Sequence record: PV467749.1
Length of the DNA: 64,000 bases
Strand: one strand, 5' to 3'
Origin: a phage
In this document: positions 44,239 through 60,214 of the stretch, in pieces
How the letters are laid out: each line of letters starts with the position of its first letter
Position numbering within the stretch: the first letter of the stretch is position 1
Position numbers and translations under genes: made by a program
Notes under the pieces: generated by a model
Seen by the model: only the letters and a program-made list of their open reading frames with translations
What the model was told of the DNA's origin: nothing
Databases searched by the model: none

Positions 44239-44716
44239 CGTAAATCCTCTTTAATTCTTTTACATTTTTAATGAATACTTTCATTGCAGAAATCTCAAAA
44301 GCTAATGATTTAAATTTGCAGTACTTTTTAAAGTACGACATAATGAATAGCATTTTGAGTTCTTTTTCTGTGTAAATTAAACTATTTTGAAAGTAACTTT
44401 CTTCTGATAAATCATCAAGAAAAGGATATACAACTCCATTTGGAGTCAAGAACATGACACGTTCACTCCAAGATCTAAATGAAATGTAATCAGTCTTACC
44501 ACATTCATATAAGGAGTTTATCATTCCGTCAATCATTAAGGAGAACTCAATACTGTATCCTAATCGTTGACACTTGTATCTCTTATCTTCTTTCTTTGTA
44601 ATTACAAAGTGACGACCCAATGCGTCTTTGTTATCGAAAATGAAATCAACTGTCTCTAAACACTCCTTAGCGAACTTTATAGTTTCTCTGTACTTTCGGT
44701 TCATTAGTCTCTCCAA
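44222..44716 (-). CDS. FQ-motif family protein
   Basis: 164 aa; LSEESYFQNSLIY. Confidence 0.7.
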   Translation of the reverse strand: MERLMNRKYRETIKFAKECLETVDFIFDNKDALGRHFVITKKEDKRYKCQRLGYSIEFSLMIDGMINSLYECGKTDYISFRSWSERVMFLTPNGVVYPFLDDLSEESYFQNSLIYTEKELKMLFIMSYFKKYCKFKSLAFEISAMKVFIKNVKELKRIYDVHRK

Positions 44717-45117
44717 ACTTTACCAGGGAAGTGTTTCTCGTAGAACTCATCATCACTTAACATATAATCAGGTGTTTCTACTTCTATGGGTTTGTAGAAT
44801 GTTTCTGGAATGTGTGTAATTTTATTGGGTAGTACTTTATGTTCGCGTAAAACCTTCTGTATAGCTCCTAGACGTTGTAAATCAATACAGCCCGGCAGAA
44901 CTAAGCTGTACTGAAATAGCTCATCAGGGGTCATTATAGATACATCCTTGGCTTGTTTGATTTTATTGTTGGCATTAATGAATATATCAAATCCAAGTAC
45001 TGCATTATAGCTTACATATGTTGTTTTGTTTTTGTCAATAGCTGCACTTAAACTATATCCATATATTCCATGTTGGTCAACAATGCATCGTTGCATAATT
45101 TTAATCATTTCGAACAT
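44704..45117 (-). CDS. FQ-motif family protein
   Basis: 137 aa; MTPDELFQYSLVL. Confidence 0.7.
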   Translation of the reverse strand: MFEMIKIMQRCIVDQHGIYGYSLSAAIDKNKTTYVSYNAVLGFDIFINANNKIKQAKDVSIMTPDELFQYSLVLPGCIDLQRLGAIQKVLREHKVLPNKITHIPETFYKPIEVETPDYMLSDDEFYEKHFPGKVWRD

Positions 45118-45463
45118 AATTTACCTCGTATGTGTTATAATTCCACGTTTTAACACTATCCATTTGTATATCCTGAACTTCATGGAAATATTTAAGTACC
45201 TTCTGGTATTCCATTAGTTCGTACACATCTTCAGTATTGACAGTGCTCTCCTGAAACAATTCCTCTTCTGATAAAGTACTATAATCAGGGATTTTTATTT
45301 CAGAATATATCTCATTCATATATGAATCATTTTGGTAAATCTGTAGATAAAACTGATTATATTCAGGGATATAGGTTACGAAATGGTTCTTGATGAATTC
45401 ATATCTTGAAGCAAAGCAATCATTGCCATCCGTCATGTACTGAATTGTTGTTGTATTATGCAT
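45101..45463 (-). CDS. FQ-motif family protein (short form)
   Basis: 120 aa; LSEEELFQESTVN. Confidence 0.7.
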   Translation of the reverse strand: MHNTTTIQYMTDGNDCFASRYEFIKNHFVTYIPEYNQFYLQIYQNDSYMNEIYSEIKIPDYSTLSEEELFQESTVNTEDVYELMEYQKVLKYFHEVQDIQMDSVKTWNYNTYEVNYVRND

Positions 45464-45938
45464 TCAAATAATCCACGCATTTATGGTATACATCTAAATC
45501 TAAAAAGAATCGTTGTTTGTATTTGTAATGATGAAGTAGTGCACCATAAAGTAATATAGCATTAAGTACTTTTGCATCATGAATACAAGACCCTTGGAAG
45601 TACATTTCTTCTGTCATGAAAACTAACTCATTGTACGGGATAAGCACTGAATCTCTAAATGTATCAATGTTAATCTTCAAATCGGACCCTTGGCAATATG
45701 AAATATATTCACCTCGGTAATGAAAGTCATTATCGTCAAAGTACTCAGCATATACTTGATTGTTCCTATTATTTTTAAAGGCAAGTCTTCCTTTGGTTGA
45801 ACTGAATTGGTCATATTGGAACATTCCACCAAAAGGCATTCCACCGAAAGGTTGGGGACTTCTGAACTCCTTTGCAATGCGATGAATGTTAGATGCAAAT
45901 TCTAAAACACCATCGTAATCATATTCTGTTGTAATCAT
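45456..45938 (-). CDS. FQ-motif family protein
   Basis: 160 aa; MTEEMYFQGSCIH (EEMYFQGS encoded at 45588-45611). Confidence 0.7.
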   Translation of the reverse strand: MITTEYDYDGVLEFASNIHRIAKEFRSPQPFGGMPFGGMFQYDQFSSTKGRLAFKNNRNNQVYAEYFDDNDFHYRGEYISYCQGSDLKINIDTFRDSVLIPYNELVFMTEEMYFQGSCIHDAKVLNAILLYGALLHHYKYKQRFFLDLDVYHKCVDYLNA

Positions 45939-46414
45939 AGACCATTTTTCTCCATGTACTCAATGATTTCATCTACGAAGTTTAAATCCATATAGAATCT
46001 ATCATTTGCGTCATTGAGTTCATCTTTAAGTACTGTAAAAATTGTAGAACTAAACACGATTCTCTCATTGTACAAAGTACTGTACTGGAAGAATTCTTCT
46101 TCTGATCTAACATTAAATGTGTCATATTCATCATCATCATTAGATCTAGGATGATAGTACTTAAAACTATCAGATGTATGGAAACAATATGAGATAAAAT
46201 CCCCTGATGGTGCATCGTCAAGTACACGAATACCACAGAAATTCTCATCTGTAGTATGCAACAAATTGCTATTCATTGACAAATAATTTTTGTACGCATA
46301 AAGTGTGCATCGTGGGAGAATTATATTCTCTTTAACTGTTACAAGGAACTTATGAAGTTTAATGATATTTTGTGCGATTTTTTGTGCATTGCTAAATGAT
46401 AGGTCTTTGGACAT
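45935..46414 (-). CDS. FQ-motif family protein
   Basis: 159 aa; RSEEEFFQYSTLY; C-terminal FYMDLNF. Confidence 0.7.
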   Translation of the reverse strand: MSKDLSFSNAQKIAQNIIKLHKFLVTVKENIILPRCTLYAYKNYLSMNSNLLHTTDENFCGIRVLDDAPSGDFISYCFHTSDSFKYYHPRSNDDDEYDTFNVRSEEEFFQYSTLYNERIVFSSTIFTVLKDELNDANDRFYMDLNFVDEIIEYMEKNGL

Positions 46415-46447
46415 TGTGATATAACCCTTTACAATTAATATAAAGAG

Positions 46448-46477
46448 ATTATATCACAAAGATTTGGAGGGTGTCAA
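46448..46477 (-). promoter_or_regulatory. sigma70-like promoter with extended -10
   Basis: Minus strand TTGACA-N18-TATAAT with TGA; -35 overlaps the TGA stop of 46474..47007. Confidence 0.6.
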
Positions 46478-47007
46478 GAGTTCTCACGAAGTTCTACCAT
46501 TTCTTTCCATACTAAATGGTAATCTTCTAAGTCCAGATAGAAGTCTTCATTTAAGTGCTCATATAAGTACTTGTACATGAATAGTACACCTAAATTGTAT
46601 TCAGTAGTAAGCAATGATTGTTGGAAGTAGTTTTCTTCATTTAGTTCTATATCCATGAACTCAAATCTACCTAGACCTTTTAATGTACGTATCTCAACAT
46701 GTGAAGTATCTGTTTTACTGAAGCACATGAATCCACCTCTAAATTCGGGATCATATTCACATTCATACTGTCCACTGTTATTATAGAAATCTCTATTACC
46801 ATCCTTATCTTTTGGCTTAACAACTGATACGTGAAGGTCGTCATCTTTGTACATTGTACGTTCTGGCGTTTTCACACATTTTAACTTATTTTCTTTAATG
46901 TACTTGATAATATCAATTATATCTTGTGCAGTACTGATTGCTGCCTCGAACGTATCCAACTTAAGATGATTGTATAGAGTTCCCTCGTTCTTTATTTTAT
47001 CTAACAT
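46474..47007 (-). CDS. FQ-motif family protein
   Basis: 177 aa from ATG 47007 (GAGG RBS); LNEENYFQQSLLT; FYLDLEDY. Confidence 0.7.
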   Translation of the reverse strand: MLDKIKNEGTLYNHLKLDTFEAAISTAQDIIDIIKYIKENKLKCVKTPERTMYKDDDLHVSVVKPKDKDGNRDFYNNSGQYECEYDPEFRGGFMCFSKTDTSHVEIRTLKGLGRFEFMDIELNEENYFQQSLLTTEYNLGVLFMYKYLYEHLNEDFYLDLEDYHLVWKEMVELRENS

Positions 47008-47014
47008 ACTAACC

Positions 47015-47353
47015 TCATAGTTCATACATCTTTGATTTGAATTGCATTGGTCCACCAACTTCACATGGATAATTTTCCATAATACGATTCAAAAGTATCT
47101 GGTACTGTTGTAGTACTTCAATTTCCAAATGTATACTACTATCCAGTACTAATGACTCCTGAAACAATTCACCTGTATCTAAACCTGAAAAATCATTTAT
47201 AGTTAGCATTGGCTTATCATTTGTACGCAATGTAAATGATTCCTCATTTCGGATTAATGTACAGAATTCATTATGTTTTCTGTTATAATTCATTTTAACT
47301 AATAATAACTTAGTGTGAGTTGCGTACATTATTTTTACTAATTCAGTCTTCAT
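47015..47353 (-). CDS. FQ-motif family protein (short form)
   Basis: 112 aa; LDTGELFQESLVLD. Confidence 0.7.
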   Translation of the reverse strand: MKTELVKIMYATHTKLLLVKMNYNRKHNEFCTLIRNEESFTLRTNDKPMLTINDFSGLDTGELFQESLVLDSSIHLEIEVLQQYQILLNRIMENYPCEVGGPMQFKSKMYEL

Positions 47354-47702
47354 AACGGAATAAAATTCTCCTGTACTGCTCCGGCTTAGTACTCAATCTC
47401 TTCACCGGATAATTGTCGAAGATCCTTTTCATTTCTTTCTGGATTAAACAAAGAAAATCAAAATCACAATAGTATTTTTTATCCCATACTAAACTTTCTT
47501 GAAATAACTCATCTTCTTGCATTAGCGTAGTATCAATCGTATCTTCACGTGTATTTGAGTACGCTTCATGACATTGAAATCCATCTTCTGACAATTCTAA
47601 TGTATATGCCGCCATTTCAAACATATCATCATTTGTCTTTAACGAAAGTAAACAACAAACGTATTTTTTCGTTGTGTAGTACGTAATACTAATGGTATTC
47701 AT
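47343..47702 (-). CDS. FQ-motif family protein (short form)
   Basis: 119 aa; MQEDELFQESLVWDKKY. Confidence 0.7.
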   Translation of the reverse strand: MNTISITYYTTKKYVCCLLSLKTNDDMFEMAAYTLELSEDGFQCHEAYSNTREDTIDTTLMQEDELFQESLVWDKKYYCDFDFLCLIQKEMKRIFDNYPVKRLSTKPEQYRRILFRYED

Positions 47703-47707
47703 GGCAT

Positions 47708-48310
47708 TTAAACCTCAGTATAAAGCTTACAATAGCTTTCATCGAAATCAAAAATACTTCTCAAGAACTGACAAAGGTCAGTAAAAATATTTACATTTGC
47801 TATATACACATTATCAAATTCTGTTCTTTCGAAGAATGTATGCATAGAATTTGTAATATATCTCATTGCAGATTCACGCTGCATTGTTATATCATTTGTG
47901 AACATCGCATCTTCATCAGTACTGACTAATTCAATATCAAATGATTGCATATATGGGATACTCTTCCCTAGTGCAAAGCTATCACCGTATGATGCTTCAA
48001 CTGCACCTTTAGAATACACCAATTGATATAAGTCCGAAATAGGGTTATAAAAAGTACGACATATTGATGAACATAATTTATTATCTATCCAAAAGAAAAC
48101 CCTATTTGTATTACCGTCAAATGCTATACGCAATCCATCACCATCTAACGATATATCACCATCGAGATTAAAAGAGAACTGAACTAATGCTTTTTCTAAG
48201 TCCATTCTTTTGTGATAAATGATTTCTTGCATATAGATAATATCATTTACTAATTTCTTAAAATACAAATGAACCTCAGTACTACAACATTTATTTGCAT
48301 TTAATAACAT
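47708..48310 (-). CDS. FQ-motif family protein (degenerate motif)
   Basis: 200 aa; STDEDAMFTNDIT. Confidence 0.6.
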   Translation of the reverse strand: MLLNANKCCSTEVHLYFKKLVNDIIYMQEIIYHKRMDLEKALVQFSFNLDGDISLDGDGLRIAFDGNTNRVFFWIDNKLCSSICRTFYNPISDLYQLVYSKGAVEASYGDSFALGKSIPYMQSFDIELVSTDEDAMFTNDITMQRESAMRYITNSMHTFFERTEFDNVYIANVNIFTDLCQFLRSIFDFDESYCKLYTEV

Positions 48311-48855
48311 AGTAGTTCCTTATACATTGCGTGTATTCTTTCAATATCTCTGTAATAACTCATATCTTCACGAGTATCATTAAAAATAGTAACACTGAAT
48401 ATATTAATACTAATTGAACTATTATCAATGTACTCTTTTAATTTATTATAAAGATATATACATTTAGTAGATGTATCATCCCACATAAGACTATTTTGAA
48501 AGATGTTTTCTTCTGTATTAGGATATAAGTACTGGTCAATATTGTACTCCAATGAACTATCACAGTTTTTATATACAGAAATAGATGGAAAATTTTTATT
48601 GTACATAATACTAATAACATTATCATTGTATGTAGAAATTAAACTGGTACTGGATGCTACACTTTCATCATAATTCAGTACTGAAATTCTTGCATTATCT
48701 GTGCAGTACAGATGTTTCATTCCACCTCTCATAGCCATAGTAAGAAATTTATCAGTGAACCATATTCCTTTTGTTTTCAGTATAGTTTCATGCATAAGAT
48801 AAGTTTCAATGAAGATTTTTACACGCTCAAATGCTAAGTCAAGTTCATTGTACAT
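48301..48855 (-). CDS. FQ-motif family protein
   Basis: 184 aa from ATG 48855 (AAGGA RBS); NTEENIFQNSLMWD. Confidence 0.7.
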   Translation of the reverse strand: MYNELDLAFERVKIFIETYLMHETILKTKGIWFTDKFLTMAMRGGMKHLYCTDNARISVLNYDESVASSTSLISTYNDNVISIMYNKNFPSISVYKNCDSSLEYNIDQYLYPNTEENIFQNSLMWDDTSTKCIYLYNKLKEYIDNSSISINIFSVTIFNDTREDMSYYRDIERIHAMYKELLCY

Positions 48856-49036
48856 AACGGATATCCTTCTGTAAAGAATCAATATATTCTTTAACAACTT
48901 GTTCCTGATACTGTGTGCCCAAATACATCAGTACTTTTAACTCTTTGAATTCAGTACTATATGAGTCGGTTTGCATCATTTTAGAAGAATATATATTGAA
49001 TAGTTTGGCAATATCATCTTGGTCTATTATTTTCAT
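48845..49036 (-). CDS. LGT-Q motif small protein (family C)
   Basis: 63 aa; MKIIDQDDIAKLF...LMYLGTQYQEQVVKEYIDSL. Confidence 0.6.
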   Translation of the reverse strand: MKIIDQDDIAKLFNIYSSKMMQTDSYSTEFKELKVLMYLGTQYQEQVVKEYIDSLQKDIRYVQ

Positions 49037-49241
49037 ATATTCTCTTCTGGATTAGTTCCTGTAAGTGCTGAATATAACCCTTCATTGCAACATCCTGTTT
49101 GTTAGAGCCAACGAAGAACAATAGCTTAAAGTCATGGTAATCCATTTTTGGTTTAGTAGTGAACCATATGTCCCACACTGCCCTCACAGTTCTCATGTAT
49201 TCAATTCGATTAAATGTTTTTGAATACTTCATCGAAATCAA
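49014..49241 (-). CDS. LGT-Q motif small protein (family C, divergent)
   Basis: 75 aa; LLFFVGSNKQDVAMKGYIQHL. Confidence 0.55.
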   Translation of the reverse strand: MISMKYSKTFNRIEYMRTVRAVWDIWFTTKPKMDYHDFKLLFFVGSNKQDVAMKGYIQHLQELIQKRIYENNRPR

Positions 49242-49743
49242 CCTTTAATAAATTGATATTTAAATTACTGTTAAATGCCATCTGCAATTCCATATAGAAC
49301 TGAATAATAGCATAGTCAGGATCAGTACAAGATAGTTGAAAGCACTGTTCTTCAAATGAATTGTAATTGTACTTAGGAATATTAATAGTACGATATAACT
49401 CTGGATAACCCCATATCATAGTGTACACGTCAATTTCAGTACACTTTTTCTTAAAAGTCATCTGTCGAATAGTTTCAGATCTGGATTCAAGGTATACAAC
49501 ATTCTTATGAACGGCTGAACCAATTGAAAGCAATGATGTATCAATGACGTGTTTCTCACGTATCTCACACTTCTGGAATGCACCATTCCCTTGTAGAAGT
49601 TTATGGAAATCGTACTTCTCACTAATAACTGTACTAGGATCAATTAATCCAGTACTGCATTTTTTCAGTACTGGTACGATAGTGCGAATTTTTTTTGATA
49701 AATCTTGTAATGCATCATAATCATTAATGTTAATTTTTCTCAA
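49210..49743 (-). CDS. FQ-motif family protein
   Basis: 177 aa; NSFEEQCFQLSCTD. Confidence 0.7.
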   Translation of the reverse strand: MRKININDYDALQDLSKKIRTIVPVLKKCSTGLIDPSTVISEKYDFHKLLQGNGAFQKCEIREKHVIDTSLLSIGSAVHKNVVYLESRSETIRQMTFKKKCTEIDVYTMIWGYPELYRTINIPKYNYNSFEEQCFQLSCTDPDYAIIQFYMELQMAFNSNLNINLLKVDFDEVFKNI

Positions 49744-50185
49744 AGGATGCCTCTTCTATAGTAACGAAATCAACTAACCTATCCAGATTTTCAGTGTCAA
49801 GATAAAATACATCCAGTACTGACTTCTGATATAGTACACTAAATGTACATAGATTGTCAAGTGTTCCTTCATTATAAACAGTACTTCCCTGGAAGTACCC
49901 TTCTTCTGTACTCAGAGATAAAATATCAGAAATTTTAAAAGATTCTTCATTCTCATGACGCTCTATCGTAACTTCATCATATTTTCTGTTCAATGAAATA
50001 TAATCGTATGCTAACTCAATTAGACTATAATTATCCGCATTAGTATCAAATAAAGAATCAATTGTAATCTTCGTGCCATTAGAAACTTCTCTTCGTTCAT
50101 CATCTACGTATTCAGGATTTTCTTTGAAGAACTTAACAACTTTTAGAATATCATTTGCTTTCTTGATTGCACTTTCGTAACTCAT
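49730..50185 (-). CDS. FQ-motif family protein
   Basis: 151 aa; LSTEEGYFQGSTVY (EEGYFQGS encoded at 49883-49906); FYLDTENL. Confidence 0.7.
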   Translation of the reverse strand: MSYESAIKKANDILKVVKFFKENPEYVDDERREVSNGTKITIDSLFDTNADNYSLIELAYDYISLNRKYDEVTIERHENEESFKISDILSLSTEEGYFQGSTVYNEGTLDNLCTFSVLYQKSVLDVFYLDTENLDRLVDFVTIEEASFEKN

Positions 50186-50624
50186 TTTTTCTGGACTCCA
50201 TATATATTACCTGATTTAGTTCATATACATAATCTAAATCAATGAATATAGAATTATTAAAGTTCTCTTGCAGGAATGCATTAAAAACTACTAAAGCTCT
50301 TAACGCCCCATTTGGGTATATAGTACTGTACTGGAAGTAAGCATCTTCTGAATTTAAAAATAGTACTTCTTCTTCTGTGAATTCAAAATATTTTCCACCT
50401 TCCTCTATATAATAGAAAGTTCCAGAATCCCATACGAAGTACTTGAATTCCAAATCATAATCATGGGACTCGTACTTATATTCATTACCTAATCCTAGAA
50501 TATCTGTACCAACACTTATAGTACTAATATATGCCCCTTTATAGTCTAAGTACTTTACATTATTTTGAAAGAACTTTACTATATTAACTAATTCCTCAGC
50601 GTGCTTAAGATCACTTTCGTACAT
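50151..50624 (-). CDS. FQ-motif family protein
   Basis: 157 aa; LNSEDAYFQYSTIY; IFIDLDYV. Confidence 0.7.
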   Translation of the reverse strand: MYESDLKHAEELVNIVKFFQNNVKYLDYKGAYISTISVGTDILGLGNEYKYESHDYDLEFKYFVWDSGTFYYIEEGGKYFEFTEEEVLFLNSEDAYFQYSTIYPNGALRALVVFNAFLQENFNNSIFIDLDYVYELNQVIYMESRKNELRKCNQESK

Positions 50625-50938
50625 TATATTTCAATCTCTATATATTTTTGGGTAATTAAGTAATCCCAGTAGTACTTCACATGTTTTTGTATCTCAAGTA
50701 AAGCATAAAAATTAATTCTCTTATCCCATACAAGTGATTCCTGAAAAATAAATGATTCATGATCATCTCTGTAATCACATTCAAGGAAGTCAGGAAGATA
50801 ATCACAATCGTGAAGATATTCAATCATTAAAGATTCATTACATCTTCTAACGGCAAGGTGCTGGAAATTATCATGATCGAAGAAATACATTAAACTAATT
50901 GTACCTGGAATGTACTGAATACTGTATAATAATTTCAT
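50624..50938 (-). CDS. FQ-motif family protein (short form)
   Basis: 104 aa; DDHESFIFQESLVWDKR. Confidence 0.7.
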   Translation of the reverse strand: MKLLYSIQYIPGTISLMYFFDHDNFQHLAVRRCNESLMIEYLHDCDYLPDFLECDYRDDHESFIFQESLVWDKRINFYALLEIQKHVKYYWDYLITQKYIEIEI

Positions 50939-51378
50939 CGTTTACCCTTATGTTCGGCACGTACATATTCATAATCCAAATAAAACCTTGTACTATCAAT
51001 ACTTTTAAAGTACCACATAATAACTAAAGTATCTAGTACTTCATCATCATACAAAGTACTATTCTGAAAGTAATACTCTTCACTATCCCACGGACCTTTC
51101 AGTACTTCAAAGTTCAATTTTAAAGGTCTGCTGCGATTATAAAAACGGATTTCACCACCATAAGCATAACTGATAAATTCTGCATCTGGATTGTATTGTG
51201 AAAAATCTGCGGGACTTTTGGAATTCAGCCCAAGAATAACTGTAGTTGTGGTAAAATCACTATCCTTGTAGTAGTTACCATTCTCGGCTTTGTATACTTC
51301 TTCGAACTTCCCAGCCTTAATATCTTCAATATATGCCTGTAGTTCTTTTGCTTTATCAAGAGCACTTTGTAATGACAT
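50935..51378 (-). CDS. FQ-motif family protein (GPW subgroup)
   Basis: 147 aa; MSLQSALDKAKEL...GPWDSEEYYFQNSTLY...FYLDYEYV. Confidence 0.75.
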   Translation of the reverse strand: MSLQSALDKAKELQAYIEDIKAGKFEEVYKAENGNYYKDSDFTTTTVILGLNSKSPADFSQYNPDAEFISYAYGGEIRFYNRSRPLKLNFEVLKGPWDSEEYYFQNSTLYDDEVLDTLVIMWYFKSIDSTRFYLDYEYVRAEHKGKR

Positions 51379-51844
51379 TATCTTCCCCTACAGTATTCTC
51401 TACGTATTCATAATCGAAATAGAAACTATCAGAACCAATACTTTTAAAGTACCACATAATTACAATAACATCTAATTCTTCTTCATTGTACACAGTACTG
51501 TTCTGGAAGTAATATTCTTCACTATCCCACGGACCTTCTAGTACTGAATACGGAATGATTGTGTCATAATCATCGTAATCAGGGCTGTAAATTATAATAT
51601 CTTCATCTCTACAATAACTAATGTACTGATTGTACATATGATATTCACAGTCATCAGTATCACCCGTATCAGTGTGTAGTACTAACGTTTCTGCATGTAT
51701 CTCTGACTCATCATAATCGTCGCGGTCTTTTACAAAAAATTCAGTATCAGATGTTTTATACACACCAGGCACTGAACCTTCTTGTACCATAATCATGTAC
51801 TCATGAATCTTCTTTGCTTCTTTCAATGCACTTTCTAATGACAT
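51356..51844 (-). CDS. FQ-motif family protein (GPW subgroup)
   Basis: 162 aa; MSLESALKEAKKI...GPWDSEEYYFQNSTVY...FYFDYEYV. Confidence 0.75.
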   Translation of the reverse strand: MSLESALKEAKKIHEYMIMVQEGSVPGVYKTSDTEFFVKDRDDYDESEIHAETLVLHTDTGDTDDCEYHMYNQYISYCRDEDIIIYSPDYDDYDTIIPYSVLEGPWDSEEYYFQNSTVYNEEELDVIVIMWYFKSIGSDSFYFDYEYVENTVGEDNVITKCS

Positions 51845-51846
51845 TA

Positions 51847-52287
51847 CTAATCCCCTGTACTTAAATATTCACATGCTCCCCAGTCAAGGAAGAAGGGTTC
51901 AAAATTCAATTCCTTAAAGTACCACAAAACAACCAAGGAATCAAGCATTTCTTGGTTAAAAATAAGACTCTGTTGGAAGTAATACTCTTCAGTACCCCAC
52001 GGTCCATCAAGTACCCCGAAGTCAACAGGTGTATTTGATGTGTCAAAAGTAATCTTAGTACCTGGAATATATACAAAAAAACTAGTATATTGACTACATG
52101 AAGAGTACTGTATAGTATTGTCTTTATCATGGCCCATAAGTAAAATATCATCAGAGTATGTCTTTATACCTGATAGATAATACTCATTACCAAATGCACT
52201 TACTTTATCACCATAGAAACCACTTTTTATGTTATCGTGGAAGTGATGTATTTTGTGTGCCAGTTTAAGTGCACTTGCTAAACTCAT
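51847..52287 (-). CDS. FQ-motif family protein (GPW subgroup)
   Basis: 146 aa; MSLASALKLAHKI...GPWGTEEYYFQQSLIF...FFLDWG. Confidence 0.75.
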   Translation of the reverse strand: MSLASALKLAHKIHHFHDNIKSGFYGDKVSAFGNEYYLSGIKTYSDDILLMGHDKDNTIQYSSCSQYTSFFVYIPGTKITFDTSNTPVDFGVLDGPWGTEEYYFQQSLIFNQEMLDSLVVLWYFKELNFEPFFLDWGACEYLSTGD

Positions 52288-52754
52288 ATATCCTCTTTAA
52301 TAACTCGTAGTAGATCCAAGTCCAGATAGAAGCTAGGACAATCGGTATTATTAAAGTACCACAGAATGACAAGCTTGTCAAGCACATATTCCTCGTAGAT
52401 AGTATTCTGCTGGAAGTAGAACTCTTCACTTCCCCAGTCATTATCCAGTACTGAATACGGAAGATGTTTCTCTGCTGCACCAGTTTTAATGTCAGTATCT
52501 TGTATTAAAATATCAGCATCACGACAGAAGTACATGTAATTATCTTCCAGATTAACAACACACCCATTGAGTGTTGTTTCAGAAGAATCTAAGTTTTCTT
52601 CATACATGTGAATGTACTCACTACTGTCATCGTATATCATTCGACAATAAGCTTTACCTTCCTTGAATAGATACCCATTGAGACGATTGAGTACTATTTC
52701 CTTTTTACATAAATCAATTAACTTAGCAATTTCTAATGCTCTTGCAAAACTCAT
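52284..52754 (-). CDS. FQ-motif family protein (GPW subgroup)
   Basis: 156 aa; MSFARALEIAKLI...NDWGSEEFYFQQNTIY...FYLDLDLL. Confidence 0.75.
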   Translation of the reverse strand: MSFARALEIAKLIDLCKKEIVLNRLNGYLFKEGKAYCRMIYDDSSEYIHMYEENLDSSETTLNGCVVNLEDNYMYFCRDADILIQDTDIKTGAAEKHLPYSVLDNDWGSEEFYFQQNTIYEEYVLDKLVILWYFNNTDCPSFYLDLDLLRVIKEDI

Positions 52755-52755
52755 A

Positions 52756-52941
52756 TCAACTCCTGTGTTGTGTCTTGATATAATCTCGGTAAACCATGTG
52801 AATATTAGCTATATACAATTCACTAATATCATATGTACCGAAGTACATGTCATTCCTAATGCTGTTGTTATGTCTAATATCAATTACGAATCGTCGAAGT
52901 ATTGTATTCATGAATGATTCCATTTGTTCTTTTTTATTCAT
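52756..52941 (-). CDS. small hypothetical protein (possibly a divergent family C member)
   Basis: 61 aa; fills the gap exactly, with an ATGA overlap upstream. Confidence 0.5.
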   Translation of the reverse strand: MNKKEQMESFMNTILRRFVIDIRHNNSIRNDMYFGTYDISELYIANIHMVYRDYIKTQHRS

Positions 52942-53282
52942 AGCTTAAAACGATACCTATCTTTGGAATCAGTCTCTATACAGATTCTTCTATATTCTTT
53001 CATCTTCTGTTGGAGTTCAATAACTTCCTCTAGTGTACACAAGTACTTCTTGTCAAATATTAATGACTCTTGAAATATTTCAGCCTCACCCTGTACAGTT
53101 GTATAGTCTTTCATATTTTCTACAACTGTTCCTTTGGACTGATAATCAATTAAGCTAAAGTAAGAACCATTAAATTTAATGTACTGATCCATTTTGTGTT
53201 CATAATCACCTTTGTTAAGATTGCAATACACTTCCAGTGAAGTACTAATCTTAGGTATAAACATAGAAAAATCATATGTCAT
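52938..53282 (-). CDS. FQ-motif family protein (short form)
   Basis: 114 aa; CNLNKGDYEH...VQGEAEIFQESLIFDKKYLCTLEEV. Confidence 0.75.
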   Translation of the reverse strand: MTYDFSMFIPKISTSLEVYCNLNKGDYEHKMDQYIKFNGSYFSLIDYQSKGTVVENMKDYTTVQGEAEIFQESLIFDKKYLCTLEEVIELQQKMKEYRRICIETDSKDRYRFKL

Positions 53283-53638
53283 TATGTAATTCCTATATTG
53301 AATTTGTATTCTTGATTAATACTTACATTGGATGTATTCAAAGCAGCATACTCTTTCATTTCATTTTGTATTGTAATAACTTCTTCAAATGTACACAAGT
53401 ACTTCTTATCAAATACTAATGCAGCTTGGAATAGTTCAGCGGCATCCATTACTGTATAATCCGGCATATCTTGATGTGGATACTGTAATGAATCGTAATC
53501 AATAAATGTAAATTTACCCTGAGTGTAATGAATATACTCATTTGCACTGTGCATTAAATCACCTTTGTTTAAATTACAAAAGTACTGAAAACTGTTCTTA
53601 AAAGAATGTACTGATATTACAAAATCAAATTCCATCAC
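53282..53638 (-). CDS. FQ-motif family protein (short form)
   Basis: 118 aa; CNLNKGDLMH...VMDAAELFQAALVFDKKYLCTFEEV. Confidence 0.75.
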   Translation of the reverse strand: MMEFDFVISVHSFKNSFQYFCNLNKGDLMHSANEYIHYTQGKFTFIDYDSLQYPHQDMPDYTVMDAAELFQAALVFDKKYLCTFEEVITIQNEMKEYAALNTSNVSINQEYKFNIGIT

Positions 53639-54012
53639 TCTTCCCCTAGATTGAAATGATTACTAAAATTAGTTTCACCAGTTTTACACCATTTATCTAT
53701 ACATTCCCTGTGAATGCATTTAATTCTACGCTGGATTTCAACAATCTCTTCTAATGTACAGATGTACTTCTTGTCAAATACTAATGACTCCTGAAATAGT
53801 GCAGCATCATCCATTAAGGTATAGTCCAGCATATCGGTTGCTTTACAACTAAATCCAGTACCAAGATCCATTAAATAAAATTGTGAATTCCAGAACTTTA
53901 TAACCTTGCCCCTTGTGTAGTTTAAATCACCTTTGTACAAATTACAACACGTAATCAACTCACCCGTGTACATCCATGTCCCTATACAAAATTCATTATA
54001 TTTTATTTCCAT
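53635..54012 (-). CDS. FQ-motif family protein (short form)
   Basis: Track start is TTG 54048; ATG 54012 gives 125 aa, collinear with its two neighbours; LMDDAALFQESLVFDKKYICTLEEI. Confidence 0.7.
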   Translation of the reverse strand: MEIKYNEFCIGTWMYTGELITCCNLYKGDLNYTRGKVIKFWNSQFYLMDLGTGFSCKATDMLDYTLMDDAALFQESLVFDKKYICTLEEIVEIQRRIKCIHRECIDKWCKTGETNFSNHFNLGEE

Positions 54013-54210
54013 AATAATCTCTACTGTAATTAATAAGGTAAACTCCAATATAAGGAGAACGTTTGCGGGGGCGGGGTATTTTTTGTTTCAGGAAACATGA
54101 ACTGTACTCTGTGAACACATTTTAAAACTTTATATTAAACATATACCTTAACATGTTTTTCAGCGAAAATTTTTTTGACCCCCCCAGCGGCCTGTGAAAA
54201 CGAAACGTCT

Positions 54211-54426
54211 CTATTTATTCAGCCTAGAAATCTTGATTTCTTCAATCCTTTTCATTGCACAAAGCCTTCGACTCGTCTTCTCGTATATATTCAATACTCG
54301 TTGTACTGCATTATCTGCATCTGCAATCTGAACCAAATATGTATCCTTCAAAATCGAATCCATCATGTATTCAAAACCTTTCACACTATAGCAATATACC
54401 ACTTCCGGCTCTTCAAACGTAATCAT
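54211..54426 (-). CDS. small hypothetical protein
   Basis: 71-aa ORF. Confidence 0.5.
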   Translation of the reverse strand: MITFEEPEVVYCYSVKGFEYMMDSILKDTYLVQIADADNAVQRVLNIYEKTSRRLCAMKRIEEIKISRLNK

Positions 54427-54616
54427 AATTCCAATCCCCTATCCCATCTAACCTTCTAAGATATCTTGCGTAAATTATTTCGAAATATCTGTGCAACGAA
54501 ATTACGGATTGCTCATAATCATCATTCCTGTACATTGTGCATGTAAGAAAATCATTTAAACCGTAATCTAAACTGCACTTGAACTTCTCCTTTGCAACAT
54601 CTCTAAAATTATCCAT
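54413..54616 (-). CDS. small hypothetical protein
   Basis: 67-aa ORF. Confidence 0.5.
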   Translation of the reverse strand: MDNFRDVAKEKFKCSLDYGLNDFLTCTMYRNDDYEQSVISLHRYFEIIYARYLRRLDGIGDWNYDYV

Positions 54617-54770
54617 AATATGTCCTCTGCACAGCGTAGGTGTACTGTGAACTCAGCACCGTTAATAGGTAATCTATGTTGTAAGCACGATTTCCTCGTT
54701 GACTAGCACGGCTAGAATAAAGAATATTATCCACATATGTATCGAACTGTTCTTCAAATAACTCTTTCAT
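54609..54770 (-). CDS. possible small protein (53 aa), below the ORF-track cutoff
   Basis: MKELFEEQFDTYVDNILYSS...; ATGGATAA overlap with the next start; AAGGGTG upstream. Confidence 0.4.
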   Translation of the reverse strand: MKELFEEQFDTYVDNILYSSRASQRGNRAYNIDYLLTVLSSQYTYAVQRTYYG

Positions 54771-54779
54771 CAGCACCCT

Positions 54780-55334
54780 TTAGCACCCTTTAACAACTTT
54801 TGAAATGTAATCTTCTAATGCACCAATGTTCTTTGTATTCGTTCGAACTAAAAGATAACTTAAATCCTCGAACTCCTGAACATAATGCTTAACAGCGTAC
54901 ATGCATCGTAATTCAAAATCTGTATGAACCGTTTTGTACTGAAATAACATCTCTTCTGAAGCCTCTAAAAGCTCTGTGGCTTGTTCTGTACTGAACTTAA
55001 AGGGATTCTGTACTCCTGAACTAAAACACTTTTGTTCGTTCGTCTGGACACCCTGTGATAGATATAATCCTGTGCTACCATCTTGTGTTGATATCGAATT
55101 GAAACCATTACTTGCAACCATTAAATCTGAACTCAATACAAATAATAATTTATCTTCCTTATGAATTAATAAATCTGACTTCAGGGATTTTATTCCTGTA
55201 CTGGTTATATCACCTATACTAAGATTGTCACTGAACTTCTCAGCGTTGTTCGCAATGCTCTGGACAAGATTTTTTAATCTCTTAATGGCACTTCTGTCTT
55301 TTTCTAATGTATCTAATAAACTCATTGAACTCAT
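54780..55334 (-). CDS. FQ-motif family protein
   Basis: 184 aa from ATG 55334 (AAGGAAAG RBS); MSSMSLLDTLEKD...EASEEMLFQYKTVH. Confidence 0.7.
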   Translation of the reverse strand: MSSMSLLDTLEKDRSAIKRLKNLVQSIANNAEKFSDNLSIGDITSTGIKSLKSDLLIHKEDKLLFVLSSDLMVASNGFNSISTQDGSTGLYLSQGVQTNEQKCFSSGVQNPFKFSTEQATELLEASEEMLFQYKTVHTDFELRCMYAVKHYVQEFEDLSYLLVRTNTKNIGALEDYISKVVKGC

Positions 55335-55344
55335 TGTACTTTCC

Positions 55345-55689
55345 TTACATATTTGTACCGAACAAAACGGAACTTTGAATGCCATTAATCGACACTTCAT
55401 GTACATATATATTTTGTCTGAATACCTGAAGCAATTGAACTAAACTCTGTTGCATAATAATATGCATCGCTAAATTATCAAAGGCCGTTTCGTATTGGAA
55501 TCGTGCAGCTTCATCTTCTATGAAATTCGGAACTTGGACTGGATTTTCAAAATTTGTCCTTGTACTGAACTGTACATCATTGTCCTGTACCTTAATACCA
55601 TATGAATTATCATTGTTATCAACTACATCAAATTCAATTAAACTACCATCTTTACTGACGTTTACTATATAAACTGAAAATCTACTCAT
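55345..55689 (-). CDS. FQ-motif family protein (short form)
   Basis: 114 aa; IEDEAARFQYETAFD. Confidence 0.65.
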   Translation of the reverse strand: MSRFSVYIVNVSKDGSLIEFDVVDNNDNSYGIKVQDNDVQFSTRTNFENPVQVPNFIEDEAARFQYETAFDNLAMHIIMQQSLVQLLQVFRQNIYVHEVSINGIQSSVLFGTNM

Positions 55690-56204
55690 AATCCTATTTC
55701 CTTTAAATCTTCCAAAAATGTTTCATAATCACTTAAGGAAAAAAAGATATCCGTATCGATGTTCGCATCTAATACATTATACAAATTCTGCATCTGTAAC
55801 ACATCAGGAGCATCAATCAATGATTGCTGGAAATATGCAGCTTCATCTTCTAAAATATCCCTGAATGATCTCTCTCGTACTCTGTGGTGTACTGAATTGA
55901 ATATTGATTTCTCATCCTTAAGCATTGGTAGGTATCGAATGTACATGTGTTCTCTTAGCTCTGGACTGATGGAACCCCTGAACTGTAACACGTATTCGAA
56001 GCACATAACAACATCCTGAAGGTAATTGGCACTGTAATTATTGCTGTAAACAATCTTATGACTTCTGAACTCATCATCATTTCTGAACCAATTGTCACCT
56101 ACTCTGGTGTACTTATGACTAAGCAATCCACCCTCTAACGCTTTGATGATCTTCAAAATGTTGTGTGCAAATGCATATGATGTATTGTACTTGGCCTGAT
56201 ACAT
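55686..56204 (-). CDS. FQ-motif family protein
   Basis: 172 aa from ATG 56204 (GAGG RBS); LEDEAAYFQQSLID. Confidence 0.7.
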   Translation of the reverse strand: MYQAKYNTSYAFAHNILKIIKALEGGLLSHKYTRVGDNWFRNDDEFRSHKIVYSNNYSANYLQDVVMCFEYVLQFRGSISPELREHMYIRYLPMLKDEKSIFNSVHHRVRERSFRDILEDEAAYFQQSLIDAPDVLQMQNLYNVLDANIDTDIFFSLSDYETFLEDLKEIGL

Positions 56205-56217
56205 GTGTGCCTCAACC

Positions 56218-56412
56218 TTATCTTGTGTTAAAATATTCACTGAAATGATTATAACACAAAAGCACCACGATGTTAAGCACTCTGTTGTCAAAATCATCTT
56301 GTGATGTAGGATGCAAGGACGCATTGATGTTAAAATTCACTATATCATTGTGGAATTGGTATGTGAACAAATCAAACTTCGTATGCCTTTGTTTGATATC
56401 ATAGGCGGTCAT
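56218..56412 (-). CDS. small hypothetical protein
   Basis: 64 aa; fits exactly between its neighbours once the downstream start is corrected. Confidence 0.5.
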   Translation of the reverse strand: MTAYDIKQRHTKFDLFTYQFHNDIVNFNINASLHPTSQDDFDNRVLNIVVLLCYNHFSEYFNTR

Positions 56413-56413
56413 A

Positions 56414-57022
56414 TTATATATTCAACCCTTTAACAATGGAAATAAATTCTTTGTATACATTTTCAGGTAAAGCTCTACTACCATAAAGAACACTAAATTC
56501 AGGTAACATATCCGAAATCTCTTTCGCTAAATTTATTTCATCCCTGAACATTTGCACAGGCATGATATCCTGTACCAATGATAACTGAAAGAAAAATGAT
56601 TCAATATCTTCATGCACCTCTGAATTTAAATAAATCTCTTCTGGAAACTGGGCTGTACTGTAATAATAAAATACGTCAATTCTTTTTTCATTATTTTGTA
56701 CAAGAGGTAAATTTCTTTCGTCTCTCTTATTAATATTTGTTTTCCATGACTCAATGTTATTCGGAACCCAAAACTCATAAGGTGTCTTCTCTCCTGAAAT
56801 ATTATCCAGCTTCAATCCATAATATTCACTTTCGCCGTACTTTTGCTTCAAAACAATACCTGTACTACTAATGTTTACAATGTACGTATCAACAATCCCT
56901 TCTGTGGTAAAAGGAATATTTAACTCTGAACCTTCAGGGTACTTAGCATTGAATGCATCTAATGCTTTACTTAGCACTGGAATTGCACTTGTACTGTACT
57001 TCATTAATTGGTCTATGTTCAT
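56414..57022 (-). CDS. FQ-motif family protein
   Basis: 202 aa; EDIESFFFQLSLVQD. Confidence 0.7.
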   Translation of the reverse strand: MNIDQLMKYSTSAIPVLSKALDAFNAKYPEGSELNIPFTTEGIVDTYIVNISSTGIVLKQKYGESEYYGLKLDNISGEKTPYEFWVPNNIESWKTNINKRDERNLPLVQNNEKRIDVFYYYSTAQFPEEIYLNSEVHEDIESFFFQLSLVQDIMPVQMFRDEINLAKEISDMLPEFSVLYGSRALPENVYKEFISIVKGLNI

Positions 57023-57567
57023 TTTAATTCCCCTGTAATCATACTGATATTTGAACGATACATATCGTACACTGTACTTTCTTTCTTGTGCACAATGAAA
57101 TCATAAAGATCAACAAATGCAGGAATAATAATCTTGAATGATTTATTTGGGTACGTCCCAAAATCAACTGTACTCAATTTTGCAACGAGCATAACAACAA
57201 AGATTTCTTCTGGACTATGCAATGTACTGTACTGAAAATATTCCTCAGCACTCATGGCACTTATTGCATTTATATCTTGTGTTTGTAATGTAATATTAAG
57301 ATATTCAAAAATAGAATAAAACTCTGATTTTGTTTGTATTTTGTATTTGTCAATTGGGGTATCTCTCATGAACCATAAACGGTCCTGACCATAAAAAGGA
57401 ATGATTGAATTTGGGGAACCCAAAAAAACTTCTTCTCTATCAATATCCTTTAACTCAATTTGCATACCGGATGAATTGGCAATAATTAATTCATTAAAAA
57501 TGTAATGAACCTTGTGTACAATCTCTTGTACTGAATTGAAATCATCTGGTATTTTAAAATTTTCCAT
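57019..57567 (-). CDS. FQ-motif family protein
   Basis: 182 aa from ATG 57567 (AAGGAG RBS); MSAEEYFQYSTLH. Confidence 0.7.
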   Translation of the reverse strand: MENFKIPDDFNSVQEIVHKVHYIFNELIIANSSGMQIELKDIDREEVFLGSPNSIIPFYGQDRLWFMRDTPIDKYKIQTKSEFYSIFEYLNITLQTQDINAISAMSAEEYFQYSTLHSPEEIFVVMLVAKLSTVDFGTYPNKSFKIIIPAFVDLYDFIVHKKESTVYDMYRSNISMITGELK

Positions 57568-57593
57568 AGGTATCTCCTTAAAAATGATTACAC

Positions 57594-57622
57594 ATTGTAC
57601 CATGCATTTGTACTCGTGTCAA
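57594..57622 (-). promoter_or_regulatory. sigma70-like promoter
   Basis: Minus strand TTGACA-N17-TACAAT with TGG upstream of the -10; directly after the terminator. Confidence 0.65.
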
Positions 57623-57623
57623 A

Positions 57624-57653
57624 CAAAAAAAGCCCATATCTTACGATACAGGC
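57624..57653 (-). terminator. intrinsic terminator
   Basis: Minus strand GCCTGTATC-GTAA-GATATGGGC followed by TTTTTTT; overlaps the stop of 57641..58138. Confidence 0.7.
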
Positions 57654-58138
57654 ATGTTTATTTGAATTTCATTGTACAAATCATCAATATATAGACATGA
57701 AAACGATAAACTTTCTTTAACTATATTGTTGTGATAAAGCATTTTAAACACTATATAGAAAAATAAATCAATATCATCATGAACTAAATTCTGCTGGAAC
57801 CACCACTCTTCTGTTAAATCTTGTGCATTAAAATCATCAGGAACTTCAATTGACGACATATCAGCATCTTCTTTGTACTCAAACCACATGTCGTCATTTG
57901 GAAAACGTTCATGCTTCTCTGGGTAACAATTGCTGGGATTAAATGCTAAAATATAAAATACCGTCGCAGAATGTTCTTTATTAAAAAATGAATTATTCCA
58001 CACCTGATACCTTTCACCAACATCAAGCTCTTTTGATACTGATGTTATTGCACATAATGTACGATATATTGTTTCTATTTTGTGAACAAATTTAAAGGCT
58101 GCATCTAAACTAAACTCTAAATCAGACATGCGGTGCAT
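57641..58138 (-). CDS. FQ-motif family protein
   Basis: 165 aa; DLTEEWWFQQNLVHD. Confidence 0.7.
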   Translation of the reverse strand: MHRMSDLEFSLDAAFKFVHKIETIYRTLCAITSVSKELDVGERYQVWNNSFFNKEHSATVFYILAFNPSNCYPEKHERFPNDDMWFEYKEDADMSSIEVPDDFNAQDLTEEWWFQQNLVHDDIDLFFYIVFKMLYHNNIVKESLSFSCLYIDDLYNEIQINMPVS

Positions 58139-58458
58139 AAAATTACCTCAACTAAAATAAGAACGGTATTGAATTCGAGGCAACCTTTGATACCTTGATT
58201 GTACATGTACTTTGCTACTACATATTTCTGTACTAAATTATAATTATTAAATTCCTCAAAATTGTAATTTAGAATGAAATTTGTACTCAAAAATAACTTA
58301 TGCATCTCTAATGCACTCTGATAATATTTGTACAACTCACTGATATCAATACTTTGTAAATCACTTTGTTCATATGTATGATAAGGAATGGCGTCAATAT
58401 CAATATTATTAAACCATTCTCTTAACTTATTAATATCAAATGTATTATTCAGCTTCAT
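58117..58458 (-). CDS. hypothetical protein (possibly a very degenerate FQ-family relative)
   Basis: 113 aa; NFEEFNNYNLVQKY is only loosely similar. Confidence 0.5.
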   Translation of the reverse strand: MKLNNTFDINKLREWFNNIDIDAIPYHTYEQSDLQSIDISELYKYYQSALEMHKLFLSTNFILNYNFEEFNNYNLVQKYVVAKYMYNQGIKGCLEFNTVLILVEVILCTACLI

Positions 58459-59023
58459 AACTCAATACCTCCATTAAGCACTCATAAACACCATCAATCG
58501 CATAAGCACAAAAACTGAAATTAATTTTGTTATTCTTGTGTAATGGACTATCGTGTACTGTACTCAACATAACACTATAAAACAAAGAACGTTCATGTGT
58601 AAATAATGATTCCTGAAAAAATGCTTCCTCTGATTTAATTTTATTATATTCAATCGATTGATCATTAGAATAAAATGAATCTTGATTTGAATTGTACCAT
58701 GTGTAATCCAAATCATTCTTTGATATAACTGGTGTTGGATTAAACTGTAAAAGACTAATAACACTACGGGCATTTGGGGTATCAGGTGTATTGAATCGTT
58801 TATCAAAATGACTCGTGCACGCAATATGTGAATCAAAATCAGATGGTTTAAACCCCATGAATGCGTTAATGATTCTTGTATATGGTTTTTTATTATGTGC
58901 TGCTTTCTGTACATTATATAAGGCTGCAACAATACAAGCTAACTTTTGTCCCATAAGGATTGCATTAGCGTAGGTGTACTGAATTTCATTGTACTCATTG
59001 CTTTCATTGTACTTCGAGATCAT
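58445..59023 (-). CDS. FQ-motif family protein
   Basis: 192 aa; IKSEEAFFQESLFT. Confidence 0.7.
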   Translation of the reverse strand: MISKYNESNEYNEIQYTYANAILMGQKLACIVAALYNVQKAAHNKKPYTRIINAFMGFKPSDFDSHIACTSHFDKRFNTPDTPNARSVISLLQFNPTPVISKNDLDYTWYNSNQDSFYSNDQSIEYNKIKSEEAFFQESLFTHERSLFYSVMLSTVHDSPLHKNNKINFSFCAYAIDGVYECLMEVLSYEAE

Positions 59024-59345
59024 GGAACAGCCTCACTTTGCCTAACTCGTCATTGGATATAAATTCGTTAACAGCTTTCTGTATATTCCTTAATAATAGC
59101 ACATCAAATCCTTTTGTGTCAAGCACACATTGCATTTGGAAGAATTCTTCTTCTGATAATGTATTAAAATCCACAAAATTGTCTAATATTACGTCATTAT
59201 CCAAATGTGCCATGTGCCATGTATTTCTTTCGGAGCGTTTAATAAAATTCCATCCATCTGGATAATCGGGTTCTAATTCTACATATATCCCCGATACTGT
59301 ATAAAGCATTTTATATATCATAACTATTGTACTCATTGCTTTCAC
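59004..59345 (-). CDS. FQ-motif family protein (short form)
   Basis: 113 aa (or 105 aa from ATG 59321, collinear with its neighbour); TLSEEEFFQMQCVLD. Confidence 0.7.
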   Translation of the reverse strand: MKAMSTIVMIYKMLYTVSGIYVELEPDYPDGWNFIKRSERNTWHMAHLDNDVILDNFVDFNTLSEEEFFQMQCVLDTKGFDVLLLRNIQKAVNEFISNDELGKVRLFHDLEVQ

Positions 59346-59653
59346 TGTACGTCGATGTCATAATACGCTCCTACCTCATAATCTTTCTTGCTTTGGAATT
59401 CATTAACGACTTTCTGTATATTTCTTAATGTTACCATGTCATGTCCGTACATGTCAACCACCAATTGCATTTGGAAAAATTCTTCTTCAGATAATGTATT
59501 AAAATCTATAAAATAATCCGTAACAACATGTTCGTCTAAATTTGCCATGTACCATTGATTGGTATCGACCTCTTTAACCAAATTCCATGCATCTGGATCG
59601 GATTCTAATTCTACATATATTAATGTTAATGTATACAGCATTTTATACTTCAT
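59342..59653 (-). CDS. FQ-motif family protein (short form)
   Basis: 103 aa; MKYKMLYTLTLIYVELE...TLSEEEFFQMQLVVD. Confidence 0.75.
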   Translation of the reverse strand: MKYKMLYTLTLIYVELESDPDAWNLVKEVDTNQWYMANLDEHVVTDYFIDFNTLSEEEFFQMQLVVDMYGHDMVTLRNIQKVVNEFQSKKDYEVGAYYDIDVQ

Positions 59654-60203
59654 AACTATATCCTTGCATTAAAAGAACATAAGCAATATCAACTAATTCT
59701 AAACGAATGAAAAATTTTAAATTATCTTTCAATAGATTCAAATGCATTATACTAAACAACATAAGATACTTCATTTGATTTGTATTGTATATTAGGGATG
59801 TCTGAAATACTTCTGCTTCATTGTAAGGATCAATAAATTTTATACCTTCTTCACTGTAATCCGTTTTGGAATTCTGATATATAAAATAATCATCACCAGC
59901 ATTGTACCACAAATAACCTTCAAAACTAGAATCAAATTCTGAATTTTCATTTCGCATTAAAGGTGATACTGAAATTGGATTTGAACCAACTGTTGCACAA
60001 ACCTCAATGTAAGCATCTTCACTTCCCTTAACTTCCTCTTTGATTTTATCATTGTACTGTCCTGCAAAACCAGCTTTTACTTCCAAATATAAACTACTCC
60101 CAACTTTATTAATTCTTAAAAGGGAACTCTGTACTGTATTCGCATTGTTCAGCACTAACGATATTGTGCAAATCTTATGTACCAATAACTCAATATCATT
60201 CAT
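59643..60203 (-). CDS. FQ-motif family protein
   Basis: 186 aa; PYNEAEVFQTSLIY. Confidence 0.7.
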   Translation of the reverse strand: MNDIELLVHKICTISLVLNNANTVQSSLLRINKVGSSLYLEVKAGFAGQYNDKIKEEVKGSEDAYIEVCATVGSNPISVSPLMRNENSEFDSSFEGYLWYNAGDDYFIYQNSKTDYSEEGIKFIDPYNEAEVFQTSLIYNTNQMKYLMLFSIMHLNLLKDNLKFFIRLELVDIAYVLLMQGYSYEV

Positions 60204-60214
60204 ATTGGTATTCC

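Follow-up and report, generated by a model that had tools for sequence, protein, structure and literature searches.

Tandem gene arrays have been noted in the jumbo phages 121Q and G (Hua et al. 2017, PMC5646251), a remark that the paper on phAPEC6 repeats (PMC7247149), and about 10% of the genes of RaK2 are paralogues (Simoliunas et al. 2013, PMC3622015). The reports on 121Q and RaK2 come from the same phage group as the DNA considered here, and likewise concern long same-strand arrays of small paralogs, which they read as products of tandem duplication; they do so in one sentence each, without family definition, phylogeny, comparison or dynamics. In this work we follow one such array in a stretch of 64,000 nucleotides (nt) of phage DNA (record PV467749.1; the whole stretch is called the window), made up by a family of small proteins to which we refer as the FQ family. 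The family itself is not described in the papers by Hua et al. or in those on phAPEC6 and RaK2. Its array probably results from unequal recombination in a family of early genes that evolves by birth and death, and not from an accordion of the poxvirus kind: homologous genes stand in tandem on the same strand, neighbours are the closest relatives, members are gained and lost with fragments left behind, and the copies are under purifying selection without gene conversion. As an evolutionary pattern, this is an ordinary example of the birth and death of a tandem family. It devotes, however, about 8% of a 350-kb phage genome to one protein family without known fold or function, and one conserved in jumbo phages of both E. 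coli and Klebsiella that are candidates for therapy.

The FQ array and its subfamilies

Judged by its nucleotide matches, the window belongs to a jumbo coliphage of the Asteriusvirus type (PBECO4/121Q, Rak2-like). A search with its bases 50000-55000 against phage records matched 36 of them, all from E. coli or Salmonella jumbo phages of the PBECO4/121Q group (genus Asteriusvirus), with fEgEco12, Turkey3, vB_Ec-M-J and CMSTMSU as the closest (95-97% identity). From about 29 kb to 64 kb of the window all coding is on the minus strand, and the array region is a chain of overlapping genes with few intergenic gaps. The FQ family was defined by an iterative hidden Markov model (HMM) within the window, seeded with the genes flagged in a first-pass annotation of the sequence, which gave 39 clear members, each at E <= 3e-11, all on the minus strand and in places separated by a handful of unrelated small genes or by members of a second family, whose proteins have about 70 amino acids (aa). 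Another 6-10 genes with a degenerate motif are probable members; enlarging the HMM with seven genomes gained only one extra member in the window (38760), and the other motif-bearing genes stay probable. Only the F and the Q are invariant in the alignment of the 39 members, within [ED][EA]x[FY]FQx[ST][LTV][IVL], and most members are only 10-30% identical to each other. By length, 14 of them are short forms (<140 aa) and 25 are long forms. The array and the groups on which the argument turns are the following, with dS standing for synonymous divergence.

35331..63067, minus strand: whole FQ-family array, roughly 28 kb long, as delimited by the iterative HMM, with 39 clear and about 6-10 probable divergent members
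50935-51378, 51356-51844, 51847-52287 and 52284-52754, minus strand: GPW quartet, long forms of 147, 162, 146 and 156 aa, a contiguous clade
52938-53282, 53282-53638 and 53635-54012, minus strand: short-form triplet of 114, 118 and 125 aa, a clade with 100% bootstrap
59004..59653, minus strand: pair 59004-59345 / 59342-59653, 59% amino-acid and 72% nucleotide identity, dS 0.69
62373..63067, minus strand: pair 62373-62714 / 62729-63067, 71% amino-acid and 82% nucleotide identity, dS 0.38

The first-pass annotation attributed these subfamilies to local tandem duplication, and in this respect it is borne out, since they form contiguous monophyletic groups. In a neighbour-joining tree of the window members (100 bootstraps) the quartet is supported by 99%, and the triplet and both pairs by 100%. 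Seven clades reach a bootstrap of 70% or more, each of them contiguous along the array, deeper relationships not being resolved by the tree, and the branching of the quartet, ((50935,51356),51847),52284, is its physical order. An adjacent member is the best-scoring paralog in 13 of 39 cases, whereas 10,000 permutations give 2.0 cases on average and never more than 10; when phylogeny is set beside gene order, neighbours are thus closer to each other than distant members are. This neighbour signal is confined to shallow clades. Short and long forms are interspersed along the array, as had been noticed before; the short forms are nonetheless clustered (6 runs vs 9.3 expected, P = 0.023), and the best match of every one of them is another short form (14/14).

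The motifs by which the groups had been recognized can be read on the translations, with one blemish. In the quartet, the N-termini are MSLQSAL, MSLESAL, MSLASAL and MSFARAL, the core is GPWDSEEYYFQ (twice), GPWGTEEYYFQ or NDWGSEEFYFQ, and the motif F[YF][LF]D occurs as FYLD, FYFD, FFLD and FYLD. LVIMWYF, LVVLWYF and LVILWYF agree with the remaining pattern proposed, which misses one residue in 51356 (IVIMWYF). The triplet shares CNLNKGD, CNLNKGD and CNLYKGD, as well as FQESLIFDKKYLCTLEE, FQAALVFDKKYLCTFEE and FQESLVFDKKYICTLEE, both as predicted. Pairwise amino-acid identity is 27-43% within the quartet and 36-43% within the triplet. The pair 59004/59342 holds as a clade at the identity listed above, and 62373/62729 are indeed near-twins with a long identical stretch, 29 residues in length (DLSTLSEEEYFQESLVWDLEFPMPLVHKM).

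The end of the triplet at 54012 is the ATG annotated in relatives, the longest open reading frame (ORF) beginning at a TTG at 54048. This is one of several cases in which mechanical longest-ORF starts (TTG or GTG) overextend a gene with respect to the ATG annotated in relatives (54048/54012, 53638/53635, 57603, 56324 and 47064).

Age of the duplications and selection on the copies

The same annotation held the duplications to be recent, which our results contradict. Between paralogs, dS is 1.1-2.8 in the quartet (saturated) and 0.84-1.16 in the triplet, above the 0.69 and 0.38 of the two pairs, whilst window members differ from their orthologs by a median dS of 0.03 in fEgEco12, 0.26 in ph0011 and 0.47 in PBECO4. 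The nucleotide-level comparison covers seven genomes, i.e., the window and six relatives (fEgEco12, Turkey3, PBECO4, BF17, EC.P1 and ph0011). All six relatives, PBECO4 included, have a 1:1 ortholog (69-100% identity) of every gene of the quartet, and no full-length paralog pair in the seven genomes exceeds the 82% nucleotide identity of the closest twins. Further away, the part of RaK2 that was fetched holds at least 26 FQ members, 15 of which are reciprocal best hits to window members, and four of these hits, whose window partners are found at 39-44 kb, are collinear between RaK2 and the window; much of the diversification therefore predates the split of the E. coli and Klebsiella phage genera. 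Taken together, these figures make it probable that the members originated by local tandem duplication on many separate occasions, some before the split from the Klebsiella RaK2 phages, those of the quartet and the triplet before the radiation of the genus, and those of the two twin pairs at about the age of its main clades.

The two pairs deserve a closer look. At the 62-kb locus, PBECO4, BF17 and ph0011 have a single gene, 88% identical to 62373 (dS 0.15-0.21) and 71% identical to 62729 (dS 0.36). As 62729 is equally far from its twin (dS 0.38) and from the single PBECO4 gene (dS 0.36), the duplication must predate the split from PBECO4, and the three phages with the single gene either lost the other copy or did not obtain it; among the duplications of the array it is the youngest. 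The 59-kb locus is likewise single-copy in these three phages, with 55-62% amino-acid identity to both window members, and if the single genes of PBECO4 and ph0011 are set beside the window pair, all four are about equidistant (dS 0.64-1.09).

Neighbours could, in principle, resemble each other not for their shared ancestry but because gene conversion (concerted evolution) homogenizes adjacent paralogs, and the 29-residue block common to 62373 and 62729 is the sort of tract that this would leave. In the youngest pair, however, dS is 0.52 in the core and 0.29 in the N-terminal part, i.e., it is not lower in the core, so that the identical stretch of the twins is due to constraint and not to gene conversion. 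The ratio of nonsynonymous to synonymous divergence (omega, dN/dS), 0.97 in the N-terminal part and 0.12 in the core, also points to purifying selection on the latter, and no long identical DNA tracts between paralogs are found in the seven genomes, which leaves concerted evolution a very improbable source of the pattern. Among pooled orthologs omega is 0.23-0.33 both before the F-Q core and in the core, and the FQ copies are therefore functional genes; all members examined are under purifying selection. That the copies are old, individually conserved and selectively constrained argues for each having its own job. After a duplication, the N-terminal part may diverge freely whilst the F-Q core is held constant, a course seen in the youngest pair only.

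Gene-unit losses and their junctions

The arrays of related phages are neither identical nor static, in accordance with what the first-pass annotation had anticipated, the six relatives having 37-42 members as compared to the 39 of the window. The differences are unevenly placed: for the members from 35331 to 49743 the six relatives match the window strictly 1:1, and every difference in content is found from 50151 onwards. Between the window and fEgEco12, which are 98% identical over 30 kb, there are exactly three indels, and each consists of one FQ member absent from the window.

53261..53282, unstranded: one-gene deletion of about 360 nt (fEgEco12 gene L001 23286-23651), junction at the shared first codons (ATGACATATGAT...) of adjacent short forms
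59630..59672, unstranded: 583-nt deletion by which a 168-aa member is gone (L001 30002-30508), junction at a 43-nt direct repeat of which 36 nt are perfect
62149..62168, unstranded: site of a missing 124-aa member present in fEgEco12 (L001 33084-33458), EC.P1, PBECO4 and BF17, with 20 bases instead of 350

The first of these is a short form between the slots of 52938 and 53282, carried by all six relatives, and its junction lies within a 17-22-nt direct repeat at the 5′ ends of short-form paralogs. The 43-nt repeat of the second takes in the stop of 59643 together with the ribosome-binding site and opening codons (MKYKML) of 59342, and in fEgEco12 its second copy stands at the head of what is left of a short form, a 5′ fragment of 26 codons. 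Turkey3 and BF17 have an additional member, placed between 85-nt direct repeats, 94-96% identical, that derive from the 5′ end of the 53282 ortholog, one copy being held by an annotated 53-aa ORF of Turkey3. The present change in copy number is thus probably, in the main, loss or exchange of exactly one gene unit, through unequal homologous recombination where neighbouring paralogs are identical over a short length at their 5′ ends, from the ribosome-binding site to the first codons, as shown at the first two junctions listed. Unit losses between isolates so nearly identical mark where the genome is plastic and by which mechanism, and these natural deletion variants are a practical handle, as they can be compared for host range. 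On a broader scale, when separate tblastn matches are counted over 36-37 phage genomes, a record has 2-5 of the GPW type and 1-4 of the short one. We also considered 53282 as a chimera of two short forms and rejected it, since the overlapping BLAST blocks reflect paralog similarity and the real junction is at the first codons of 52938.

One further difference is not a simple indel. The slot after the quartet is filled in alternative ways, which is a replacement: PBECO4, BF17 and EC.P1 carry a fifth GPW gene there (163 aa; L002 22632-23123), about 60% identical to the 51356 ortholog (dS 1.07), whereas the window, fEgEco12, Turkey3 and ph0011 carry the short form 52938-53282 and an unrelated small ORF.

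52756..52941, minus strand: 61-aa ORF (MNKKEQMESF...), unrelated to the FQ family

All this bears on the ‘accordion’-type process to which the first-pass annotation ascribed the array. A true genomic accordion would mean rapid amplification under selection (e.g., by host defence) followed by collapse, with the subfamilies as snapshots of it, and two of our observations are what it would require: phages that are 98% identical differ in their number of copies, and the junctions of the indels are placed in repeats shared by paralogs. Against these stand the lack of near-identical copies in the seven genomes, where full-length paralogs are at most 82% identical in DNA, a dS that is at least 0.38 between paralogs of the window, the direction of all three differences from the nearest relative, which are losses in the window, and the quartet and triplet, saturated at synonymous sites and orthologous across the genus. 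A true accordion is for these reasons unlikely. Instead of bursts of near-identical copies we see contraction and exchange; the pattern uses the recombination mechanics of an accordion without the near-identical burst that defines it.

Exchange is also apparent within genes that all genomes share. Member 49210 is 100% identical to its fEgEco12 ortholog, yet 76-78% identical to those of Turkey3 and EC.P1, and 36646 is 85% identical to fEgEco12 vs 97% to Turkey3. Such jumps in identity from gene to gene, with respect to relatives otherwise 98-100% identical (L001, L003 and L006), are seen at 36646-37164, 48301-48897, 49210-49743 and 61200-61511, and the table of ortholog dS repeats the same uneven allelic pattern. 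The jumps therefore indicate allele exchange (mosaic replacement) between co-circulating phages. By scrambling divergence, this allelic replacement makes the array a poor ‘internal clock’, contrary to the earlier suggestion, the more so because most pairs are synonymously saturated.

It also opens another path to adjacent paralogs, as copies such as 59004/59342 and 62373/62729 might have been born diverged, when divergent alleles of co-infecting phages were joined side by side by unequal recombination at their conserved 5′ ends. The equidistance of the 59-kb copies of the window, PBECO4 and ph0011, the commonness of allelic mosaicism and the extra cassette of Turkey3 and BF17 between its direct repeats all agree with such an origin, which would explain, in addition, why young pairs are missing despite frequent indels of whole units. 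On the present data, however, it is inseparable from old duplication followed by differential loss, and the staircase topology of the quartet fits serial duplication in place. We regard it as possible, though with less conviction than serial duplication would command.

Expression, possible function and the known viral systems

Birth-and-death evolution, as preferred here, is proposed for a family of early genes, and the evidence for this comes from the placement of promoters. Between 29 and 64 kb, all ten promoter matches of at least 11/12 are on the coding strand, and six of these ten end about 27-34 nt before a start codon, two of them being counted with the shorter starts annotated in relatives. 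Sites of this kind are given below.

46448..46477, minus strand: perfect match to a sigma-70-type promoter (TTGACA, 18 nt, TG-TATAAT), its end 34 nt before the ATG of 45935-46414
57594..57653, minus strand: terminator-like hairpin (57653-57632), then 11/12 promoter match (57622-57594), between members 57641 and 57019
42562..42623, minus strand: terminator-like hairpin (42623-42604), then 11/12 promoter match (42590-42562), located in the gap that follows member 42622
62119-62147, 56248-56276 and 33451-33478, coding strand: further near-perfect matches to sigma-70-type promoters from the promoter scan

The near-perfect promoter matches have an extended -10 element and are located in the few intergenic gaps of the chain of overlapping genes; the extended starts of 57019-57603 and of 55686-56324 cover a predicted promoter. 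This placement suggests several early transcription units, and the genes of the array may be early ones, transcribed by the host RNA polymerase. In the related phage CBB, a comparable region of small genes is suspected by the authors of that study of holding early host-takeover genes (PMC5259590).

As to the proteins, AlphaFold models built from window-only alignments reach a mean predicted local distance difference test (pLDDT) of 80 and a predicted template modelling score (pTM) of 0.77 for the long form 51356, and 84 and 0.80, respectively, for the short form 53282. Both have in common an antiparallel beta-sheet, a short F-Q helix, a long helix and a final strand, to which the long forms add an N-terminal helix and C-terminal helices; the F-Q helix is the most confident part of the long-form model (pLDDT 95-98). 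Sequence searches of Pfam, NCBIfam and the PDB gave no significant match for the FQ family, PHROGs gave no function, and a fold search gave no convincing match, its viral fold hits being confined to Rak2-like phages. PHROGs splits the family into 28 groups, all of ‘unknown function’ (phrog_9317, phrog_12674, phrog_13866, phrog_15629 and about 24 others), which array members match with E-values down to 1e-62 to 1e-121. A HMMER scan of 1.84 billion representative proteins returned 176 clusters; seven of ten sampled are named, all from Asteriusvirus or the Klebsiella phages RaK2 and K64-1, the remainder being contigs without a name.

The conserved E-E-x-[YF]-F-Q-x-S brings to mind the site of the tobacco etch virus (TEV) protease, ENLYFQ|G/S. 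Were the motif a 3C/TEV-like processing site, the family would consist of precursor proteins, and the Q, invariant in 39/39, would be in keeping with it. The likeness is superficial, however: the residue after the Q varies (E, N, Q, Y, G, L, M, H, T and A) and is not confined to G or S, the motif lies inside the helix of highest predicted confidence, and no protease was identified. A processing site is so improbable that we read the motif, from the models, as a structural core, its likeness to TEV/3C sites being presumably coincidental.

The most likely function of the FQ proteins, stated with low confidence, is that of early host-interaction proteins with a conserved core and a variable specificity part. 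They may act on host targets, in takeover or counter-defence, with the variable part conferring specificity and the core serving as common scaffold or docking element. It is tempting, if doubtful, to go further and regard the family as a diversified early host-interaction arsenal confined to Rak2-like jumbo phages, in which the F-Q core docks one partner, the beta-sheet and N-terminal part pick the targets, and the copies were born diverged by recombination during co-infection. If this were true, the array would have to be seen as a library whose cassettes recombine, and no longer as duplicates that slowly diverge.

Some observations on labels and neighbours may be added. According to the annotations of relatives, the array is flanked by a methyltransferase and a protein kinase. 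The ph0011 ortholog of 37164-37577 is labelled ‘putative ADP-ribosyl transferase’, a label that is unconfirmed, with no Pfam match at E <= 0.01, and the label ‘Phi92_gp213’ in the ph0011 record was not reproduced, as tblastn with the 46474 protein finds only Asteriusvirus genomes (E <= 0.01). Partial copies of the phage proteins P0044 and P0048 are filed under Actinomadura adrarensis, on contigs of 513-790 nt, and many copies as ‘Escherichia coli’, on contigs of about 350 kb; these bacterial labels most likely reflect phage contamination or carried phage in the assemblies. The second family of paralogs, whose proteins have about 70-76 aa and the motif LGT(D/Q)xQ, is found at 48845-49241, 60913-61188, 62154-62369 and 63057-63970 (the last runs past the end of the window) and at L001 34322-40511; it has eight copies in the window, four of them interspersed in the FQ array, and 30-33 copies per related genome, with a median pairwise identity of 24% and a maximum of 59%. 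It has no match in Pfam, and the remark on tandem arrays in 121Q more probably refers to this adjacent family.

Several points weigh against the birth and death of an early-gene family as proposed here. Over all members, similarity shows no significant correlation with distance in the array (Spearman -0.04; 390 of 2000 permutations in a Mantel-type test), because most members are too diverged (10-30% identity) to be placed, and only some 11-13 of the 39 can be shown to stem from local duplication. Some phage outside the seven genomes compared could have a young duplicate, and the direction of the indels, taken as loss in the window and not gain elsewhere, rests on parsimony over these seven recombining genomes. 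Finally, promoter-like matches are in total no more numerous than in shuffled sequence, only the top scores and their placement being suggestive.

Even so, the closest parallels to this interpretation are to be found among other viruses. The multigene families of African swine fever virus are a viral example of birth-and-death evolution, and the FQ array resembles them in its diverged tandem paralogs, in the gain and loss of units between isolates, in its gene fragments and in the purifying selection on the survivors. It differs from them in that there is no relationship of sequence or fold, and its role in host interaction is one that we only infer. The genomic accordion of poxviruses, with its amplification of K3L, is said to have been described by Elde et al. 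in 2012; accordions of this kind are known by near-identical copies that appear within a few passages. Like them, the FQ array changes its copy number by recombination between tandem copies, but unlike them its youngest pair is only 82% identical in DNA, and what is observed amongst near-identical genomes is contraction only.

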